Source of the DNA: Eubacteriales bacterium
GTDB taxonomy: Bacteria > Bacillota > Clostridia > Oscillospirales > UBA644
DNA: 64,000 bases
Assembly: GCA_045543655.1 (NCBI GenBank)
Contig: JAZPXN010000027.1
Span: 64,710-128,709, forward strand
Direction: 5' to 3'
Shown: positions 50,015 through 59,091 of the stretch, in pieces
Numbering within the stretch: position 1 is the stretch's first letter
Layout of the letters: every line of letters starts with the position of its first letter
The notes under the pieces: generated by a model
What the model saw: the letters and a program-made list of their open reading frames with translations, nothing else
What the model was told of the DNA's origin: nothing
Databases searched by the model: none
Translations under genes and position numbers: made by a program

Positions 50015-50995
50015 ATGCCAAAATCCAGAAATCAGAAACTGAAGCTGCCCTGCCTGATCCGCATCCTGAAGGAAAAGACCGACGTCGATCACGGTCTTTC
50101 TACCGAAGAGCTGATCCGGGAGCTGGGGCGATACGATATTTCGGCAGAGCGAAAAAGCATCTACGACGATATTGATCTTCTGCAGAACAATTTCGGGATG
50201 GCTATCGAGCACGATAAGGCCCGGGGATACCGATTGGTGGAGCAGGAATTCGATCTGCCGGAGTTGAAGCTGCTGGTGGATGCGGTACAATCCTGCAAAT
50301 TTATTTCCACGGCAAAAAGCGAGGATCTGATCCGGAAGCTGAAGGGGCTGACCAGCGAGCATCGGGCAAGGGAGCTGCAACGGCAGGTGACGGTCAAGGA
50401 TCGCATCAAATCCATGCACAATTCCACGATCTATTCCATCGACACCATCCAGAACGCGCTACAGAATAACCGGCAGATTTCCTTCCAGTATTGGGGCTGG
50501 ACGCCCTCAAAAGAGCAGAAACCCCGCCACGACGGGAAGCGATATCTGGTGTCCCCCTGGTCGCTGTTGTGGGATCACGAATACTATTATCTCATTGCCT
50601 TTGACAGTGAAAAGCAGGCCATTCGCCATTACCGCGTAGACCGGATGCGGAGCGTCAGCGAAGAAAACGCCGGACGGGAGGGCCGGGAGGCCTTCGAAAA
50701 GCTGGACGTGGCGGAATACTCCTCCGGCGTATTCGGGATGTTCGGTGGAAACACCACCCACGTGACCTTCCGTTGCAAGAAAAAAATGGCGGACGTGATC
50801 ATTGACCGGTTCGGGAAAGACGTGATGATGACGCCGGAGCCGGACGGGTTTAAGTTCCACGCGGATATCGACGTTTCTCCCCAGTTTTTTGGCTGGGTTG
50901 CCTCGTTGGGAGACGAGATCCGCATCGAAGCCCCGGCGAAAACGGTGGCAGAATTCAAGCAATACATGATCAAAGCGCTGGAGCAATACGAATAA
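50015..50995 (+). CDS. WYL-domain transcriptional regulator (N-terminal HTH + WYL + C-terminal WCX-like domain)
   Basis: DeoR/HTH-like N-terminus and a WYL core (YLVSPWSLLWDHEYYYLIAFD...IRHYRVDRM). Confidence 0.8.
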   Translation: MPKSRNQKLKLPCLIRILKEKTDVDHGLSTEELIRELGRYDISAERKSIYDDIDLLQNNFGMAIEHDKARGYRLVEQEFDLPELKLLVDAVQSCKFISTAKSEDLIRKLKGLTSEHRARELQRQVTVKDRIKSMHNSTIYSIDTIQNALQNNRQISFQYWGWTPSKEQKPRHDGKRYLVSPWSLLWDHEYYYLIAFDSEKQAIRHYRVDRMRSVSEENAGREGREAFEKLDVAEYSSGVFGMFGGNTTHVTFRCKKKMADVIIDRFGKDVMMTPEPDGFKFHADIDVSPQFFGWVASLGDEIRIEAPAKTVAEFKQYMIKALEQYE

Positions 50996-51001
50996 AGAAA
51001 A

Positions 51002-51045
51002 CGGAGACGCTTCCTTCGGAAGACGCCTCCGTTTTTTTGTGATAC
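51002..51045. terminator. Hairpin terminator between convergent genes
   Basis: ACGGAGACGCTTCC...GGAAGACGCCTCCGT imperfect stem, followed by T7. Confidence 0.65.
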
Positions 51046-51047
51046 CG

Positions 51048-51647
51048 TTATTTTTTGTTCAGCCTTTCGCCGACGGCTCCGCCGGGATGAATGAGAGCAA
51101 ACTGCTCTTTTTGATAATCGGTCTGTTCGATCAGCGCCGTCTGTAAGGCGTGAAAAATCATGCAGAGAGCGGTGGTACTGGTCGTACCCTGCATATTGTA
51201 TTTATCGGTCTCCCGGTTCACGTGCTGCTTGAGAACGACGTCCGCGCCGAGGGCAAGGGGGGACTGGGTATTTTCGGTAACGGTAATGACTGAAATCCCC
51301 TTCGCTTTGCAGATATCCAGGATCGGAAACAGTTCTTTCGTTCCGCCTCCTCTGGAGGCAAAGACCATGACGTCTCCCTTCTGCAGAAAACCGGTCGCAC
51401 CGTGGACCGCCTCCGCCGGAGAGATAAACCGGGCGGGCCGCTCAATGCAGCACATCAAATGGGCAAAATGCTGGCAGATAATGCCGGAATGTCCGCATCC
51501 CGCAGCGCCGATCCGGGGAGCCTCGCTCAAAAGCTCTACGGCACGGCGGAAGGCTTCCTCGTCAAAATATTCCTTCATTTCCCGCAGACAGTCGGCCTCG
51601 ATATCGTAGGCGTCTTTTGCGGCTTGCAACGCTTTTTCGCTGATCAT
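51048..51647 (-). CDS. KpsF/GutQ-type SIS-domain sugar-phosphate isomerase lacking CBS domains (arabinose-5-phosphate-isomerase-like)
   Basis: GCGHSG, PAEAVHGATG and TTSTTALCMIFHAL...ALIHPGGAVG align with KpsF core motifs. At only 199 aa it has no CBS pair. Confidence 0.75.
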   Translation of the reverse strand: MISEKALQAAKDAYDIEADCLREMKEYFDEEAFRRAVELLSEAPRIGAAGCGHSGIICQHFAHLMCCIERPARFISPAEAVHGATGFLQKGDVMVFASRGGGTKELFPILDICKAKGISVITVTENTQSPLALGADVVLKQHVNRETDKYNMQGTTSTTALCMIFHALQTALIEQTDYQKEQFALIHPGGAVGERLNKK

Positions 51648-51662
51648 ATCGTTTCTCCTGTT

Positions 51663-53075
51663 TTATCCGAAAATTTTATCGTCAACGTTAAGATACCGGG
51701 CGTAGCATTCAGAATAATCGTCCCCACCCGGACGGTATACCCGGTTGGGCTTCACGGCCATTGCGCAGGCCGCCGGAACGCTTTCGAACACGCCCGTGGC
51801 AACGCCGGCAAGAATCGCAGAGCCAAGGCAGGCAGTTTCATCGCTCTTCAGCGTAACGAAGGTCTTTCCCGTCATATCGGCCTTGATTCGGCACCATAAA
51901 GGGCTTTGCGCGCCGCCGCCCATCGTGCGGACCTCGGAATAATCAACGTTGATATAATCCAAATTCCGCTTCAGCATGCAGGCCACCGACTCCAGAATAC
52001 TCCGGACGGCGTGCCCTCTGGTATGCTCCAGCGTGAGGCCGTAAAACACGCCCCTGGCCTCGGGATCGTATTTGGGCATGGTGGACCCGCAGAGGTAGGG
52101 CAAAAAGGTCAAGCCTGCGGAACCGGGAGGAACCTGCTCCGCTAAGGCATCCAATTCCTTGAAATCGAAGGATTCGCAGAACTGATTGCGGAACCATTTC
52201 AGCGCAATGCCGGCGGTGGACGACCACAAAAGCAGGGCGTAGGAACCGTCGTAATTCAAATGACAGGGGATCTTACTGTCCGCACGGTAGGCGGGGACGG
52301 TATCGGTTGGCACGAAGGCCGCCATGGTGGTTCCCGTCATTTCGCTGACGATCCCCTTTTCCACGACGCCGGCACCGATCGCCCCGGCCACCTGGTCCAT
52401 CGCCCCGGTTACCACCTTAATTCCCCGGTATTCCCCCACGACCTCGCCGCTTTTCAGCACCGAGGGCAGGCAGGATTCGGTTAGTCCGAGGAAATCCAGC
52501 ATTTCCTGCCACCAAATCCGCCGATGAATATCGAAATACACGGACGAAGACTGCAGCGTCTGCTCGGTGATAAACCTCCCGGTCAGTTTCCAAAGCAAAT
52601 AATCTTCCAGCAAAAATACCTTTTTCATCTTCCGGAAGATCTCCGGACGCTCCCGACGGAACCAAAGCAACTTACAGGCAGGCCACGTTGCGGTGATCTC
52701 CGGCTGCCCCGTCACCTCGTAGACCTTTTTCTCTCCGAAAACGGAGCGAAGCTCGTCCGCCTGCTTTGCCGCCCGGTTATCCAGCCACACCACGGCGTCG
52801 GCAAGAGGATTTCCCTCTTCGTCGGCGAGAATCAGTGTTTCACACTGAGTATCAATGCTCATCGCATAGAGATCGAACCGGGGGGACACCTCCTCCAGAA
52901 CCTCTTGAAGCATCTGCCAATAGCCGTCGGCCGGAAATTCTACGAAATCCCCGGAAACGTTGAGAGTATAGTCCTTGGTCAGGGTCATAATCCGGTTGGC
53001 GTTTTCATCAAAGACCGCCGCCTTCAAAGACGTGGTACCGACGTCGACGCCCAATAAATATTTCATACGCGTCAC
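51663..53075 (-). CDS. FGGY-family carbohydrate kinase (xylulokinase-like)
   Basis: LGVDVGTTSLKAAVFD N-terminal motif and MGGGAQSPLWCRIKADMTG C-terminal motif. Confidence 0.85.
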   Translation of the reverse strand: MTRMKYLLGVDVGTTSLKAAVFDENANRIMTLTKDYTLNVSGDFVEFPADGYWQMLQEVLEEVSPRFDLYAMSIDTQCETLILADEEGNPLADAVVWLDNRAAKQADELRSVFGEKKVYEVTGQPEITATWPACKLLWFRRERPEIFRKMKKVFLLEDYLLWKLTGRFITEQTLQSSSVYFDIHRRIWWQEMLDFLGLTESCLPSVLKSGEVVGEYRGIKVVTGAMDQVAGAIGAGVVEKGIVSEMTGTTMAAFVPTDTVPAYRADSKIPCHLNYDGSYALLLWSSTAGIALKWFRNQFCESFDFKELDALAEQVPPGSAGLTFLPYLCGSTMPKYDPEARGVFYGLTLEHTRGHAVRSILESVACMLKRNLDYINVDYSEVRTMGGGAQSPLWCRIKADMTGKTFVTLKSDETACLGSAILAGVATGVFESVPAACAMAVKPNRVYRPGGDDYSECYARYLNVDDKIFG

Positions 53076-53099
53076 CTGCCGAAATCAAAGCGTTTTTCT

Positions 53100-53142
53100 A
53101 AAAAAACCGTTTTGGGCTGTTGTATCACGCAACAGCCCAAAA
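53100..53142 (-). terminator. Intra-cluster hairpin (terminator/attenuator) between yjbQ-like and kinase genes
   Basis: TTTTGGGCTGTTG (53110-53122) / CAACAGCCCAAAA (53130-53142), a 13-bp perfect stem. The - strand continues ACGGTTTTTT. Confidence 0.6.
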
Positions 53143-53149
53143 TCCTTGT

Positions 53150-53770
53150 TCAGCGTTTCTGCTGGAGATTGTAATGAACGTCGAAGGCCTTTTCTTCGTC
53201 GGTGTATTTCCGGAGAGTGTTGATGGTCTCACCGTTGTTCCACTTACGGTCTTCCACGTCCTCGGTGGTACCCATAACGGTAACGTTCAACTGTCTGTGA
53301 CGGGCACGGACGTGGTCCCAGTCGATGAAATAAACGTGCGCGAATTCACCGCCGTCCAGAACGCCGTCCTTAATGGTCATGGTTTCGCTTCTGCCGAAGA
53401 AAACGCTGCGCAGATGACCGTCGGTGTTCATGCTGGTGTAGTCGCCGGGCTCGTTAACGTATCTTCCGAACTGAGAATGAATGGGACCGGGATGACGGTA
53501 TTGATGCTCTTCCGCAAAGTCGGGGATCATCTTTCTCATAATATCCAGAAGATCGTGCTGGAGATATTCCAGATCGAAGGAGTCGATATCGTGAGAACAC
53601 TCCTGAATCATAACGGAGCAGGTGGTATGATGGGAGGCAATGGTGACGGTACCGTTCTTAACCCCGGAGGCCTGAACGATTTCCATTACTTCTTTGGATA
53701 CGTCGTGAAAGGTGGGGATCCAACCTCTCGACTGCAATTCCAATTCTTTCTGAAAAACCTTGAATTCCAT
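53150..53770 (-). CDS. YjbQ/UPF0047 family protein (secondary thiamine-phosphate synthase-like fold) with a C-terminal extension
   Basis: NGTVTIASHHTTCSVMIQE...DGHLRSVFFGRSETMTIKDG matches the YjbQ pattern. At 206 aa it is longer than the ~140-aa norm as I recall it. Confidence 0.65.
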   Translation of the reverse strand: MEFKVFQKELELQSRGWIPTFHDVSKEVMEIVQASGVKNGTVTIASHHTTCSVMIQECSHDIDSFDLEYLQHDLLDIMRKMIPDFAEEHQYRHPGPIHSQFGRYVNEPGDYTSMNTDGHLRSVFFGRSETMTIKDGVLDGGEFAHVYFIDWDHVRARHRQLNVTVMGTTEDVEDRKWNNGETINTLRKYTDEEKAFDVHYNLQQKR

Positions 53771-53789
53771 ATTTTTTTTCTCCTATCGT

Positions 53790-54491
53790 TTAGTTATGAA
53801 GCTCATCCCAGGCCTTGCGAAGCGAATAGAGCATCTCTTCTACCATGGCGTAGGGATCGGCGGCCTTAATAATTCCGCTGGTGCTCCCCGTTGCCTGGGC
53901 ACCGAGTTTAATCGTGTCGTATACGTCCCGGCCGTTGGAAATGCCGGCACCCTGAAGAACCATGATGTCGGGATTGATAGCCCGGACCTGCTCAATGGTC
54001 TGGATCACGTAATTGGAATCACTGATCTTCCCCGTTCCAATCAGCTCGGTGGGTTCCGCAACCAACAGATTGGGGGACAGCTTTGCAATGGAAACCAACT
54101 CTTCCACCATATCGGCACAAACGATGGTGGCAAGTCCCACCTCGTCGGCACGGCGGATGGTCTTCTCCACGGCGTCCAGGGTAAGCTTCTTTTCCGCGTG
54201 GTTCAGCATGACCCCTACGGCTCCGGCCGCCTTCACCGCTTCGGGAAGAACCGAACCGAGACCGCGCCCCACGGGCAAATAGTCCATATGCTGCGCAAAG
54301 ACCAGGATCCGTTCGGTATTCTGAGCCAGAAGACTGATATCGGTATACTGGGGGGTTACGATTACGTCCACGTCGTATTTCATGGCGACCTTATCGATGA
54401 CCTTTGCCAGCTTCAGCATCTCTTCGCCGTACAGATAAGCCTTCGGGCCTACCTCGAAGAAGGGGGGCTTAATATTAAAATCCTTTAACAT
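53790..54491 (-). CDS. Triose-phosphate-isomerase family protein (non-glycolytic paralog)
   Basis: TIM-like catalytic context (NHAEKK, AEPTELIGTG, GAGISNG). Confidence 0.65.
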   Translation of the reverse strand: MLKDFNIKPPFFEVGPKAYLYGEEMLKLAKVIDKVAMKYDVDVIVTPQYTDISLLAQNTERILVFAQHMDYLPVGRGLGSVLPEAVKAAGAVGVMLNHAEKKLTLDAVEKTIRRADEVGLATIVCADMVEELVSIAKLSPNLLVAEPTELIGTGKISDSNYVIQTIEQVRAINPDIMVLQGAGISNGRDVYDTIKLGAQATGSTSGIIKAADPYAMVEEMLYSLRKAWDELHN

Positions 54492-54508
54492 CCCGACGTC
54501 CTGCTTTC

Positions 54509-55183
54509 TTAAAAGTCCAGAATGGTCTGATCGCCGTACATATCCTTCCAGTCCTTATCGAAGCCGGTAACTGCGGCGTCGGTCATGGGGTGGGTGATCA
54601 GGCTCTTGAACAGGTCGGCGGAAATGGTAGCGGTATGACAACCGGCAAGAGCGCAGGCGTGGATCTGCTGGCAATTCTTGAAGCTTGCCGCAAGAACCTG
54701 ACAATCCAAACCGTGAACGGCGAAGGTCTCGACGATATCCTCCACCACCCGGACGCCGTCGCCGAGGATATTATCCAAACGGTTGACGTAGGGGGCAACG
54801 AAGGATGCGCCGGCTTTCGCGGCCATCAGAGCCTGCGCGGGGGTGAAGATCGCGGTCATGGTAACGCCGATGCCCAATTCACGGAGCATCATCGTAGCCT
54901 TTAAGCCTTCTTCTCCGATGGGAATCTTCACGTAAAATTCACCGCCGACGGTCTCCTTGATCAGTTTTGCCTCCTCCACGATCTTTTCCGCCGTGGTCTG
55001 CACGGTCTGAACGTGGAGCATTTTATCGGGGCCGATAATATTACGGATCTCTTTGACCAGGGCCCAGAAATCGGATTTTTCCTTTGCTACGAGAGTAGGA
55101 TTGGTGGTAACCCCGGCCACGGGATAGAACTCGTTACAATGCCGGATTGCATCCAAATTGCCGGTGTCGACTAAAAATTCCAT
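54509..55183 (-). CDS. Fructose-6-phosphate aldolase / TalC-type transaldolase family protein
   Basis: MEFLVDTGNLDAI...GVTTNPTL N-terminus and Schiff-base Lys context YVKIP. 224 aa. Confidence 0.85.
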   Translation of the reverse strand: MEFLVDTGNLDAIRHCNEFYPVAGVTTNPTLVAKEKSDFWALVKEIRNIIGPDKMLHVQTVQTTAEKIVEEAKLIKETVGGEFYVKIPIGEEGLKATMMLRELGIGVTMTAIFTPAQALMAAKAGASFVAPYVNRLDNILGDGVRVVEDIVETFAVHGLDCQVLAASFKNCQQIHACALAGCHTATISADLFKSLITHPMTDAAVTGFDKDWKDMYGDQTILDF

Positions 55184-55281
55184 TGTTTTTCTCCTTCATT
55201 ATAAGATATTCGCATCAAGAACCGAAGGGGGCCTCGTAAAAGAGAGGCACCCTCCGGAGACGGATTTACGGATAAAACCGA

Positions 55282-56253
55282 TCAATACCCAACCTTTTCC
55301 CAGCATTCAAAGGGAGCGGCCAGTTCTTCGGAAATATAGACCTGGGTCTTCTTGGTCTGCAGCATAGAGCTGGGAACGTAGGGCGTGACGGGACCGTGGG
55401 TAACGAGGCGGGAGGTCATTCTCTGCCAGGAAGAGAAGGTACCGTTGGTGGCAAGAGCGTGGACCTCAATGCGTTCCTTGGCTCTCATAACGTCGAGGGG
55501 CCCGATGGTTGCGGCCTTGGGAGGAACGTTTGCAATATCGCCGGACTGGCCGAAGGTTCCGTTCAGAGAATTCTGAAGAATGGTCATGGGATGGAGCGTA
55601 ACCAGCTTTGCAGGCTGATTCAGCCATTCTTCAATATCTCCGCTGCCGATGAATTCGGGAATGGGATCCACGAAAGCAACGTGACCGGTCCAACCGGGAG
55701 AGGTGGAGATAATATCCGCACCGCCGCCGGAAATATCGTTGATGATCTTGGAATAATCGTTAATATTCTTATTGGTGGGGTAATGGACGTTCTTCATGGG
55801 CATACGGAGTTTCGGATCGATCTGCATGACCAGATACTTGATCATGGAATGAACGAAGCCGGCCTCGTAGGTCTCAGGGGCGATATTACCGTCCTGATCC
55901 GCCCATTCGTCTTCTGCGAAAATATGAACCCTGGAGCAGTCTACCTGGAAATAATTGATCAGCTGAGCAAGAGGGATATAGGTATCGGGTTCGGGGTTGC
56001 CCAGAATCATGGTGAAGGTCTTCCCTGCCTCGGAGGCGGCCTTCAGGCGGGAAAACAGGGTAGCAATCAAAACGGGGTGGGGGTTCATCATTACCTTGAC
56101 GTCAAATTCAGGATGCCACCAGGGTTCCCGGATTTCAAGCTCCTTGCCGCTCATTTTGCGGACGCGCTCACAGACCTCTTTATCCTTGAACGGTACGAAA
56201 TCGGCAGGATCAAAATGAAACTTTGCAGGGGGATCGAAAATGATTTGGCTCAT
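55282..56253 (-). CDS. NagB/6-phosphogluconolactonase-fold protein (distant glucosamine-6-phosphate deaminase-like)
   Basis: The SPGWTGHVAFVDP segment resembles NagB GxxGHIAFNEP. It has an N-terminal extension (323 aa). Confidence 0.55.
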   Translation of the reverse strand: MSQIIFDPPAKFHFDPADFVPFKDKEVCERVRKMSGKELEIREPWWHPEFDVKVMMNPHPVLIATLFSRLKAASEAGKTFTMILGNPEPDTYIPLAQLINYFQVDCSRVHIFAEDEWADQDGNIAPETYEAGFVHSMIKYLVMQIDPKLRMPMKNVHYPTNKNINDYSKIINDISGGGADIISTSPGWTGHVAFVDPIPEFIGSGDIEEWLNQPAKLVTLHPMTILQNSLNGTFGQSGDIANVPPKAATIGPLDVMRAKERIEVHALATNGTFSSWQRMTSRLVTHGPVTPYVPSSMLQTKKTQVYISEELAAPFECWEKVGY

Positions 56254-56281
56254 AACTCTTCTCCTTTAAATCTATTTAATG

Positions 56282-57439
56282 TTATTTTTGACTCGCTACG
56301 GTCCGATCCACGCCTTCCGCAAGCACGCGCAGAACCTTCATATTGTGGTCCACGAAGACCAGGTCCGCCCGTTTCCCCACCGCAATTTCGCCCCGGTCAA
56401 AGAGACCTACGGCAACGGCGGGATTATAGGAAGCGAATTGGAACGCATTGACAACCGACGCCCCGGTATGCTTGATCATATTGCGGCAGGCAATATCCAG
56501 GGTCAGCTTGGAGCCGGCAATCTCTCCGGTGTGATCGAAATTGATATCGTCCACGCCCTCGTATCCCGGGGGAACGGGGCCGTCGCAGGCGTAGGCGTCG
56601 GAAATCAGTATGATACGGTCGTCACCCTTGATCCGACGAACCAGGCGCAGCATATACGGATCCACGTGGATACCGCGGCTGTCGCAAATCAGCTCCGCGT
56701 AGATTTCCCGATTGTAATTTACCGTTTCATCCACGCAGACACCCCGGCACTCCGGATATTTGACCCGGTCTCCCGTGGCGTTGGTATGGTGCGTCCCGAT
56801 CTTCAGCCCGTAAGGGATCAAACGTTCGATCTGCTGAGGAGAAGCCTCGCTGTGCGCCACCGTAAAGACGGCAGAAGGATTTTTTGCCTTGACGTCCAGA
56901 ACGAAATCAAGAATCCCCTCCCGCTCCGGAGCCAAAGCCCAGACCCTTGCCAAATCCCAGGCGGCCTCCACGATCGGGCCGTGCTTTTCCCGATTCACGG
57001 GATCCTTCCAGGGATTGGATTCCCGCTCGCAGCCAAATTTCGGATTCAGATAAGGGCCTTCCATATACAGACCGGCAATATTAGAGCACTCGGGACGCTT
57101 CATCGCATCCCGAAGAATACGGATACTCCGAAGATACCCCTCGACGTCCATATTAAAATACAGGGCGGGGAGAAGGCTGGTCGTCCCGTGCCTCAGGTGA
57201 TGCAGGCAGGCCGCCGTCGGATCCTCGTCGAAGAACACCTTTCCGTCGGAATGGGTGTGGATATCCACGAAGCCGGGGCCGACGTACGCCCCTCCGGCGT
57301 CGATCACGTCGCAACCGGAAGGAACGGAAAGACTCCGCATTTCACCAAAATCCACGATCCGCCCGTCTTCAACCAACAGTATTCCGTCGGGGATATAATG
57401 ATCCCGCATGACCAGCACCGCGTTGATGATCGCAAGCAT
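56282..57439 (-). CDS. Amidohydrolase, N-acetylglucosamine-6-phosphate deacetylase (NagA)-like
   Basis: GFVDIHTHS metal motif and NagA-like length. ATG at 57439 follows AAGGAG. Confidence 0.75.
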   Translation of the reverse strand: MLAIINAVLVMRDHYIPDGILLVEDGRIVDFGEMRSLSVPSGCDVIDAGGAYVGPGFVDIHTHSDGKVFFDEDPTAACLHHLRHGTTSLLPALYFNMDVEGYLRSIRILRDAMKRPECSNIAGLYMEGPYLNPKFGCERESNPWKDPVNREKHGPIVEAAWDLARVWALAPEREGILDFVLDVKAKNPSAVFTVAHSEASPQQIERLIPYGLKIGTHHTNATGDRVKYPECRGVCVDETVNYNREIYAELICDSRGIHVDPYMLRLVRRIKGDDRIILISDAYACDGPVPPGYEGVDDINFDHTGEIAGSKLTLDIACRNMIKHTGASVVNAFQFASYNPAVAVGLFDRGEIAVGKRADLVFVDHNMKVLRVLAEGVDRTVASQK

Positions 57440-57522
57440 CGTTTCACCGCTCCTTTTCACGTAGAATGAAGAAACCCAAAAGAATTATGATCGTTTTTCA
57501 TAATTACACGGATTTCTGTTCC

Positions 57523-57551
57523 GTTATAGCACGTTTTCCCCGAATTTTCAA
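57523..57551 (-). promoter_or_regulatory. Sigma-A promoter of the NagA-like operon
   Basis: Read on the - strand: TTGAAA (57551-57546), 17 nt, TGCTATAAC (-10 at 57528-57523). Confidence 0.5.
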
Positions 57552-57685
57552 GGCGATAGAATCAAATGAGTACAAAAGTTCCGTTGAAAGGACAATACAA
57601 TTATATCACAACGCGGAACGCTTTGCAATATCGTTTTATTTGTTATTTTCCTCAATTTGTTGGGTGTGCAGGCTGTAAAGCAGGA

Positions 57686-58399
57686 TCAGATCTCGAAGGT
57701 ATATTTTTTGCCGCAGGCGTTACAATGCGTAACGATCTTGCCGTTCTCCGCAAGATCCGCCTGCTCGGCAGGAGAAAGGGCGGTGACGAAACGCATCAAG
57801 GCCGCCCGGGAGCAGGTGCATCCGAACCGGAGGGGGGTGGCTTCCAGGAATTCAAACTCCCCGGGGACTTTCCCCGCCGCAAGATCTGCCGCCGCCATCC
57901 CGCACAGCGCGGCAAGGTCGCAGGCTTCGCCGGGCAACTGCTCGGCCACGACGCAATAAAAGCCGTCGGAGGCCTCAAAAACCTTACAGCAAGCGGCAAT
58001 CTGAAGGGATTGGGCGAAATAGGCGGACACCAGCCCTTCCAGCCCCTTCCCGGTGACCATGCCGGTGTAATTTCCCCGCAGGTGAAGCTGAAGAGTCACC
58101 TCCAGCGTATCCTCCACACCGTCGCAGAACGCTTCCTTCCGCCCACGGACGATGCCGTCCTTATCGGCGGTAGCGGAAAAGGTTCCGGTCCCGGGAAGAG
58201 ACAGACGGGCGGTAACGGAAGCCTTTTCATCCTTCTGCAAGGCGGCGATACAGCAGGCAAAGACCTCCAATTTTCCCAAAAGGGAGCGATCCTCCCCGGT
58301 CAAATGATTCAACTCGGCGGAACGGTTGACGGCATCGGCCAGCGAAACGCAGAAAATACGGGCGTTGCGGGCCATATATTTGGCTACTTGTTCAGTCAT
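57686..58399 (-). CDS. hslO: Hsp33-family redox-regulated chaperone (short form)
   Basis: C-terminal zinc centre CTCS...HCNACGKKY (CxC...CxxC). 237 aa. Confidence 0.7.
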   Translation of the reverse strand: MTEQVAKYMARNARIFCVSLADAVNRSAELNHLTGEDRSLLGKLEVFACCIAALQKDEKASVTARLSLPGTGTFSATADKDGIVRGRKEAFCDGVEDTLEVTLQLHLRGNYTGMVTGKGLEGLVSAYFAQSLQIAACCKVFEASDGFYCVVAEQLPGEACDLAALCGMAAADLAAGKVPGEFEFLEATPLRFGCTCSRAALMRFVTALSPAEQADLAENGKIVTHCNACGKKYTFEI

Positions 58400-59091
58400 A
58401 ACGGTCTCCTTACGATTACGATTTTGCGCCCGTGATAGGGCAGAGTCTTTACGGGAAGGAATCCGACGGTCTTCAGATATTCCCGCAGTTCTTTTGCATC
58501 GTACCAGCGTTCCCAGATCTCCTCGTCGGCCCGGAGGAAGGAGTCCCCTTCCCGGCGGAACAGGGTCAGCTTCTGACAGGCGTAGACGCCGTCGAAGGAG
58601 CGCTGCAGGATCAGGACGGATCCGTCTGCTTCATCGATCTGAGGGACGGTATCGGCAAATAATTCTTTTTCTTTCAGGTCAAAAATAAAATAGCCGCCCG
58701 GCTCGGTAAAATTGTAAAGACGGCGAAAAAACCGCTTGACTTCCCGCTTATCCAACAGGTGGTTTACCGTATCCATGGAGGAAAAGACGGCGTGGTAGGC
58801 ACCGTACAGATCGATCTCCGGCAGAGACTGGCACATCAGGTGGGGGGAATAACCGGCGTCGGACAATTTTTCAAAGGCGGTGTCCAGCATTTCCTCGGAG
58901 GCGTCCACGCCGCTGCAATCAAAGCCCCTGCGGGACAGCTCCAGCATCAGCGCCCCCGTACCGCAACCGCAATCCAGCGCCAACGGATTCTCCGGAAGCG
59001 ACAGACGGGACAGAATGCGGTCGAGGTAATCGCCGTAATCGAAGCCGGAATTGAATCGGTCGTAATCCCGGGCAATTGCGTCGTAATCCAT
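58396..59091 (-). CDS. Class I SAM-dependent methyltransferase
   Basis: Motif I ALDCGCGTG. Its stop overlaps the hslO start (ATGA). Confidence 0.8.
   Translation of the reverse strand: MDYDAIARDYDRFNSGFDYGDYLDRILSRLSLPENPLALDCGCGTGALMLELSRRGFDCSGVDASEEMLDTAFEKLSDAGYSPHLMCQSLPEIDLYGAYHAVFSSMDTVNHLLDKREVKRFFRRLYNFTEPGGYFIFDLKEKELFADTVPQIDEADGSVLILQRSFDGVYACQKLTLFRREGDSFLRADEEIWERWYDAKELREYLKTVGFLPVKTLPYHGRKIVIVRRPL

Follow-up and report, generated by a model that had tools for sequence, protein, structure and literature searches.

Which sugar is handled by a gut bacterium that places an amino-sugar-type gene pair, a sugar kinase, an aldolase and three isomerase-type proteins side by side? The question is raised by seven neighbouring genes on the minus strand of a 64,000-nucleotide stretch of DNA (the window; contig JAZPXN010000027.1, positions 64,710 to 128,709, assembly GCA_045543655.1) from an uncultured herbivore-gut Eubacteriales bacterium of the Oscillospirales. 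The genes encode a NagA-like amidohydrolase, a long NagB-like protein, a class I aldolase of the fructose-6-phosphate aldolase (FSA) type, a paralog of triosephosphate isomerase (TIM), a YjbQ/UPF0047 protein, an FGGY kinase and a single-domain SIS isomerase (Table 1). We propose that they are one complete cytoplasmic copy of a widespread, modular and uncharacterised sugar-catabolic pathway of anaerobic gut bacteria, the steps of which we place in an inferred order, and we give this reading a probability of about 0.5.

The initial annotation had described the gene set as non-canonical and without an assigned pathway, and this description held. The 2.6-Mb genome encodes a canonical tpiA, a transketolase and a separate NagB-family/NagA-type gene pair (contig C15:61329-63331) elsewhere. 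The cluster enzymes are therefore additional copies, with the exception of the aldolase, which is the sole TAL_FSA member of the genome. In searches with Pfam and NCBIfam models, all seven proteins missed the equivalog cut-offs; the exception was a subfamily model for archaeal-type TIM. No characterised pathway or operon matching this gene combination was found in searchable papers or curated families, and literature searches on YjbQ/UPF0047, 6-deoxy amino sugars, tagatose/galactosamine and TIM paralogs returned no description of the cluster.

The gene combination recurs widely. The NagB-like protein had 3051 close homologs (the best 120 of them 73-92% identical), all unnamed or 'hypothetical', and in a scan of one genome per species it was carried by at least 584 species genomes. 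The closest loci were found in Faecousia and in other Oscillospiraceae and Lachnospiraceae metagenome-assembled genomes from ruminant and other animal guts. Genes were called and proteins clustered in 87 loci, with open reading frames (ORFs) chosen by a codon-usage score. The NagA-like and NagB-like genes were adjacent in most of these loci. Further partners were a 449-aa protein (33 loci), a cytoplasmic CBM9_2-like protein (30), the long YjbQ (27), the FGGY kinase (25), the TIM paralog (23), the SIS isomerase (20), a DeoR regulator (15), a ROK/NagC-like regulator (13) and FSA (7). A lipoate-dependent 2-oxoacid/acetoin dehydrogenase set, glycerate 2-kinase and rpe were less frequent.

Co-occurrence was tested across the order by means of an evenly drawn set of 251 genomes (G000-G250). 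The TIM paralog, YjbQ and the SIS isomerase (hereafter the trio) were each present in the identical 23 genomes, nearly always as adjacent genes. Orthologs of the NagB-like protein were present in 10 genomes, nine of which also contained the trio (Fisher p = 8e-10); the lone genome without it was a fragmented assembly. FSA/Tal genes were found in 13 of the 23 trio genomes and in 62 of the 228 others (p = 0.005), often at most 8 kb from the trio. A neighbourhood check, which the initial annotation had asked for, thus returned the same set in dozens of genomes with highly significant co-occurrence. These statistics exclude chance juxtaposition. The seven genes are one conserved functional set with an obligate trio, interchangeable front ends and an accessory FSA.

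Gene order differed in almost every genome and physical linkage persisted nonetheless. The identity of the long YjbQ did not track taxonomy (up to 94% in other families but no more than 83% within the genus, and 83% in a Treponema), which indicates lateral spread. Together with the reshuffled gene order, this suggests that the genes are often transferred laterally and that selection for their linkage is strong. The same data bear on the alternative that an amino-sugar pair happens to stand beside unrelated pentose-phosphate housekeeping genes. Such an arrangement would accommodate the variable gene order, the terminator-like hairpin within the cluster and the aldolase gene, which as sole TAL_FSA member could be housekeeping. 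We consider it very improbable. The trio co-occurs perfectly, the NagB-like orthologs depend on the trio, linkage is kept despite constant reshuffling, and identities of 80-94% across families argue for transfer as a functional set.

The sister clusters differ mainly in what precedes the kinase. In trio genomes without a NagB-like gene, the FGGY kinase stood beside an isomerase of approximately 450 aa from the FucI/AraA/SftI superfamily, in loci that also encoded DeoR, MFS transporters and, in many cases, FSA. The trio of a 3.67-Mb genome and that of a Treponema were each accompanied by a second, shorter YjbQ and lay behind an AraA-like isomerase and an FGGY kinase; such loci contained DUF4432, a ChvE-type multiple-monosaccharide ABC system and galactose mutarotase (GalM). 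FGGY kinases of the window's type (53-66% identity) accompanied the NagB-like protein in 10 loci and the FucI-like isomerase in five; L032 had both. Since the same kinase type follows either front end, the NagB-like enzyme sits at the position of a pre-kinase aldose-ketose isomerase, and the ketoses supplied by the two front ends are probably identical or closely related. The idea that the trio replaces AraD-type 4-epimerases was also considered and rejected; class II aldolase-family genes were present in 9 of 12 trio genomes and showed no clean complementarity.

The absence of transporter and regulator genes, remarked on in the initial annotation, is true of the seven-gene cluster of the window, where the nearby WYL regulator is convergent. 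It is not general: DeoR or ROK/NagC-like regulators and transporters of the CUT2 ABC, MFS or AEC type are encoded in orthologous clusters.

The two proteins of the amino-sugar-type front end retain most of the catalytic residues of their families. In the NagA-like protein, which is 64-79% identical to its partners in other loci, the metal ligands and the catalytic Asp of the amidohydrolase fold (HxH, Glu, His, His, Asp) all aligned with the M. smegmatis NagA structure 6FV3, and it is predicted to be an N-deacetylase. The NagB-like protein scored 27.8 bits against TIGR00502 (equivalog cut-off 236.9). Its AlphaFold model had a predicted local distance difference test (pLDDT) score of 94 when built with a 35-sequence alignment and of 59 with a shallow one. 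The best fold matches of the model were glucosamine-6-phosphate (GlcN-6-P) deaminases (template modelling score 0.75-0.83), ahead of 6-phosphogluconolactonases, and the profile gave E = 4e-33 to deaminases versus 2e-5 to lactonases. In the numbering of E. coli NagB, the catalytic residues Asp72 and His143 are kept (D115 and H191) and Glu148 is conservatively replaced (D196). The enzyme is accordingly classed here as a predicted deaminase/aldose-ketose isomerase.

Its phosphate-binding region is remodelled. The phosphate loop (TGGT in classical NagB) is shortened by two residues to GNPEPDT, a sequence with two acidic side chains; Arg172 of E. coli NagB aligns with an invariant Leu230, and the lid is without a basic residue. 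The shortened acidic loop, the change of Arg172 to Leu and the lid are suggestive of an unphosphorylated substrate.

A cytoplasmic protein of 449 aa is encoded directly upstream of the NagA-like gene in the 33 loci mentioned above (e.g. L014:3393-4739). In a profile search it was a remote member of the neutral-ceramidase zinc-amidase superfamily (4WGK, E 1e-13; THTHTGP motif), so that many versions of the pathway may include a second N-deacylation step; the genome of the window has only a 36% paralog, located elsewhere. The NagB-type protein of contig C15 has no classical TGGT phosphate loop, reading VPYGPLGPY, and belongs to a group of approximately 280-aa proteins between classical NagB and the long NagB-like family. 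A region of contig C77 of the same genome (C77:40987-46343), read from N-terminal sequences only, resembles a second atypical amino-sugar-like cluster. It holds a long NagB-like paralog of 323 aa with 29% identity to the NagB-like protein of the window, a PIG-L/LmbE-like deacetylase, a possible kinase, a class II aldolase-like protein, a Gfo/Idh/MocA-like oxidoreductase and a sugar-phosphate isomerase/epimerase-like TIM barrel.

Alignment of the TIM paralog to P. woesei TIM (1HG3) showed that the phosphate-gripper loops are kept, as are the catalytic residues Lys, His and Glu, which are invariant in 31 paralogs. The Asn of the N-x-K motif, which polarises the triose carbonyl, is changed to an invariant Gly, and this change suggests a substrate larger than triose phosphate. 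YjbQ scored 86.3 bits against PF01894 (cut-off 27) and 64.6 bits against TIGR00149 (cut-off 67.75), with invariant HHTTC, HPGP and NTDGH motifs. Two 462-aa members of a 'YjbQ' protein cluster (P0420 and P0428, in the cluster of P0122) were considered as fusions and rejected; they are ordinary FGGY kinases and an artefact of the cluster table. The SIS protein reached 117-122 bits, versus cut-offs of 204-505 for arabinose-5-phosphate isomerases (KpsF/GutQ/KdsD). It does not have their SIS + 2 CBS architecture and reads GHSG where they have GKSG (GKAG in 3ETN).

The kinase was equally distant from the XylB, GlpK and GntK structures. The aldolase contains Gln59, the Schiff-base Lys85 and Tyr131 in the alignment to E. 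coli FsaA (1L6W) and was classed as FSA, since transaldolases have Glu and Phe in place of Gln59 and Tyr131. An FSA-type rather than transaldolase-type aldolase, a kinase as near to glycerol kinases as to xylulokinase and a compatible FSA-TIM gene order would also fit a bypass of phosphofructokinase. In that scheme the amino-sugar pair would yield fructose-6-phosphate, FSA would split it into dihydroxyacetone and glyceraldehyde-3-phosphate, the FGGY protein would serve as a dihydroxyacetone kinase and the TIM paralog would convert dihydroxyacetone phosphate to glyceraldehyde-3-phosphate. We rate this as improbable. No FSA/Tal gene was found in 10 of the 23 trio genomes, so the aldolase is ruled out as an obligatory step. 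The TIM paralog has the invariant Gly for Asn, and a canonical tpiA is present. Furthermore, the bypass leaves no role for the SIS protein and YjbQ despite their perfect co-occurrence with the TIM paralog, and the trio also stands behind FucI-like and AraA-like front ends.

In the sugar-catabolic pathway that we propose instead, the NagA-like amidohydrolase would deacetylate an N-acetylated 2-amino-2-deoxy sugar other than N-acetylglucosamine-6-phosphate (GlcNAc-6-P). The long NagB-like enzyme would deaminate and isomerise the free amino sugar to a ketose and ammonia, and the ketose would be phosphorylated by the FGGY kinase. The trio would then perform successive enediol-type carbonyl shifts on the ketose phosphate. 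The TIM paralog would act at the two carbons beside the phosphate-bearing carbon and the SIS enzyme at three to four carbons from it (KpsF/PHI-type chemistry), while YjbQ would work in between or catalyse a step of opposite stereochemistry. The carbonyl would thus be moved, or stereocentres reset, until a pentose-phosphate or glycolytic intermediate is reached. The FSA-type aldolase would provide an accessory exit to glyceraldehyde-3-phosphate and a small unphosphorylated carbonyl compound.

More tentatively, we hypothesize that the trio forms a hitherto unrecognised 'carbonyl relay', in which the keto group of a phosphorylated ketose is passed from carbon to carbon or, equivalently, its stereocentres are reset, and by which several unusual sugars and amino sugars could be channelled into central metabolism. 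UPF0047/YjbQ, acting as a sugar-phosphate isomerase or epimerase, would thereby acquire a physiological function for the first time, and FSA-type aldolases a natural role. We regard it as possible and, on balance, doubtful.

Several points weigh against the proposed pathway. Its substrate, the carbon on which the kinase acts and the reaction of YjbQ are all inferred, which we count as a weakness. By score the FGGY kinase is nearest to the xylulokinase type, in which the phosphate is added at the end of the sugar remote from the carbonyl; with such a kinase, the carbonyl shifts would have to run towards the phosphate. A terminator-like hairpin lies inside the cluster, and the aldolase is missing from the ten trio genomes mentioned above. 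In the NagB-like protein, a conserved Arg278 is found at or beside the position of E. coli Lys208, so an anionic group could still bind. The C15 NagB-type protein is also without the TGGT loop, though its basic lid residues are kept, and loop deletion alone is therefore no proof of lost phosphate binding.

Arg278 would suit a classical order of events, in which phosphorylation of the sugar, by the FGGY kinase or on uptake, precedes the NagA-like and NagB-like steps. These two enzymes would then act on an N-acetyl-amino-sugar phosphate, as in the catabolism of N-acetylglucosamine (GlcNAc) or N-acetylgalactosamine (GalNAc), and the ketose phosphate formed would pass to the trio and FSA. This order is also consistent with the closest matches in sequence and fold, which are GlcNAc-6-P deacetylases and GlcN-6-P deaminases, and with the NagC-like ROK regulators beside the pair in 13 loci. 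It nevertheless seems unlikely to us, as Arg172 is lost, the remodelled phosphate loop is acidic and in sister clusters the pair gives way to FucI/AraA-type isomerases, enzymes that use free aldoses and precede an FGGY kinase of the same type. The characterised FGGY kinases known to us have ketoses, polyols or sugar acids as substrates, and not N-acetyl-hexosamines.

The initial annotation had likened the cluster to tetrose, tetritol or rare pentulose routes. On a tetrose or tetritol-type route the FGGY kinase would make a tetrulose phosphate, three isomerases would convert it to erythrose-4-phosphate, as EryC, EryH/TpiA2 and EryI do in Brucella, and an aldolase or transaldolase would assimilate the product. 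The analogy holds for the several isomerases: three isomerase-type proteins co-occur, one of them a TIM paralog, together with an FGGY kinase and often DeoR. It breaks down elsewhere, since the cluster has no polyol or polyol-phosphate dehydrogenase and its front end belongs to the GlcN-6-P deaminase family (by the profile match of E 4e-33) or, in relatives, consists of FucI/AraA-type isomerases with a ChvE-type binding protein and galactose mutarotase. The monosaccharide-type ABC binding proteins, the mutarotase and the FucI/AraA-type isomerases argue for pentoses or hexoses rather than tetroses. In locus L004, an rpe gene above its equivalog cut-off comes after TIM-YjbQ and points to pentulose phosphates; with the xylulokinase-like kinases, it hints at pentulose-phosphate products. 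We know of no natural 2-amino tetrose, and give the tetrose route little chance.

Other neighbours of the cluster were noted in individual loci. Genes for a GH78 alpha-L-rhamnosidase, RhaA, RhaB and RhaD adjoin it in three or four loci (L031, L058, L071, L052), which hints at deoxy-sugar-rich glycans as a source. A lipoate-dependent E1/E2 2-oxoacid/acetoin dehydrogenase set and LplA are encoded beside it in L004, L005, L031, L034 and L059; such a dehydrogenase could cleave a methyl-ketone sugar phosphate.

The layout of the cluster in the window is given in Table 1. The seven minus-strand genes and all seven family assignments of the initial annotation were confirmed with Pfam and NCBIfam. The ORFs span 51048-57460 with intergenic gaps of 15-98 nt, and Shine-Dalgarno-like sequences precede both alternative starts (ATG 57439 of the amidohydrolase gene and ATG 53066 of the kinase gene).

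Table 1. Positions of the cluster genes, their neighbours and putative transcription signals in the window.
Feature	Position	Strand	Remarks
NagA-like binuclear amidohydrolase	56282-57460	-	TIGR00221 154 bits vs cut-off 226 (225.65); likelier start ATG 57439
NagB-like protein, 323 aa	55282-56253	-	No Pfam match; NF001684 E 1e-8; approximately 45-50 additional N-terminal residues
FSA/TalC-type class I aldolase	54509-55183	-	TIGR00875 233.1 bits vs cut-off 245.95
Archaeal-type TIM paralog	53790-54491	-	NF003302 203 bits
YjbQ/UPF0047, 206 aa	53150-53770	-	Pfam match stops at residue 165, leaving a C-terminal extension
FGGY kinase	51663-53075	-	Best model XylB, 294.5 bits vs cut-off 380.25; likelier start ATG 53066
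Single-domain SIS isomerase, KpsF/GutQ N-terminal type	51048-51647	-	No CBS domain; of KpsF/PHI size
Best sigma-70-like promoter candidate	57600-57628	-	TTGCAA-17-TATAAT with TG extension; consensus match only; leader would be approximately 140 nt
Promoter candidate of the initial annotation	57523-57551	-	TTGAAA-17-TATAAC; -10 box without final T; not returned by promoter scan
13-bp hairpin between YjbQ and FGGY genes	53100-53142	-	Arms 53110-53122 and 53130-53142; followed by CGG and seven T
Strong cluster-ending hairpin	50998-51035	-	-24.6 kcal/mol; common to the convergent WYL gene
WYL/WCX gene	50015-50995	convergent to cluster	Downstream, after ileS
Hsp33 gene, upstream neighbour	57686-58399	-	Pfam E 2.5e-23; preferred by codon-usage score; followed by methyltransferase

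The promoter motif first proposed, TTGAAA-17-TATAAC, does stand at 57551-57523. The motif at 57628-57600 (TTGCAA-17-TATAAT) is the stronger candidate by sequence, because the -10 box of the former is without the invariant last T. The 13-bp hairpin, also described in the initial annotation, is real: the arms within 53110-53142 are 100% complementary and the fold energy is -19.8 kcal/mol (z = -4.5). It looks like a terminator or attenuator, since CGG and seven T come directly after it. As it splits the cluster after YjbQ, a single transcript for all seven genes is unproven. An Rfam scan of the cluster and its leader returned no family, hence no known riboswitch, and no CcpA cre site was found in the promoter region. 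Upstream, a plus-strand ORF (57566-58435, 289 aa) was considered and rejected, as it has no family match and overlaps the minus-strand Hsp33 gene. The latter shares 4 nt at its start with the stop of the methyltransferase gene upstream of it.

Conservation of YjbQ/UPF0047 extends across all domains of life, yet to our knowledge the family is credited with only a weak side activity and with no main function. That its gene is perfectly coupled in genomes to those of two sugar-phosphate isomerases provides a concrete hypothesis on the function of the family. The carbonyl relay, if true, would also supply a natural role for FSA-type aldolases. Approximately 9% of the genomes in this order of gut Clostridia carry the pathway, and the NagB-like front end is present in several hundred species. 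In view of this wide occurrence, the pathway probably serves to use a nutrient that is common in the herbivore gut and is missed by current metabolic reconstructions.

Among known systems, the front end most resembles the catabolism of GlcNAc and GalNAc (NagA-NagB; AgaA-AgaS/AgaI). In both, a NagA-family deacetylase adjoins a NagB-family deaminase/isomerase with the catalytic residues kept, and NagC-like or DeoR-type regulators are found in sister loci of the cluster. In contrast to these routes, the NagA-like and NagB-like proteins of the cluster are far below the equivalog cut-offs, the NagB-like protein has approximately 50 extra N-terminal residues, an acidic loop and no Arg172, and the kinase is of the FGGY type instead of a ROK kinase or a phosphotransferase system. 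GlcNAc/GalNAc catabolism ends at fructose-6-phosphate or tagatose-6-phosphate, whereas the cluster continues via the TIM paralog, YjbQ, SIS and FSA.

The nearest mechanistic precedent is the erythritol route of Brucella, in which three isomerases in succession, one a TIM paralog, shift the carbonyl of a short sugar phosphate from carbon to carbon. The erythritol-threitol routes of Brucella and Mycobacterium (EryA, EryC, EryH/TpiA2, EryI; LerK, LerI, DerI) likewise combine an FGGY-type kinase with consecutive isomerases, one of them a TIM paralog, under DeoR-type regulation. The cluster differs from them in having no dehydrogenase, an archaeal-type TIM paralog, and SIS and YjbQ in place of RpiB and the EryC racemase. 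Its front ends are the amino-sugar pair or FucI/AraA-type isomerases, and its substrate is probably a pentose or hexose. A polyol-phosphate dehydrogenase, an EryC-type racemase and an RpiB-type isomerase were all absent from the cluster; its overlap with these routes is confined to the TIM paralog and the FGGY kinase.

The aldolase is approximately 45-50% alike to E. coli FsaA in the alignment, and the catalytic Gln59, Lys85 and Tyr131 are common to both. Unlike FsaA, it falls in a cluster-associated group, being 66-70% identical to the copies in other trio genomes, which are mostly trio-adjacent, and 55-61% identical to general copies of the same family. We know of no established physiological role of the E. 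coli enzyme.

The SIS protein shares a single SIS domain of approximately 200 aa without CBS domains, and the His of the C-terminal HPGG motif, with single-domain arabinose-5-phosphate isomerases and the Listeria SIS protein 3FXA (its closest structure, E 2e-45). The Lys of GKSG is His in the cluster protein and Thr in 3FXA. Given this replacement, the reaction is probably not the standard isomerisation of ribulose 5-phosphate and arabinose 5-phosphate. Finally, the YjbQ of the cluster has the UPF0047 core with the HHTTC, HPGP and NTDGH motifs in common with the proteins annotated as 'secondary thiamine-phosphate synthase'. Typical members have approximately 130-150 aa, whereas the cluster protein has 206 aa, with an insert and a C-terminal tail, and its genomic association is not with thiamine genes but strictly with the TIM paralog and the SIS isomerase.

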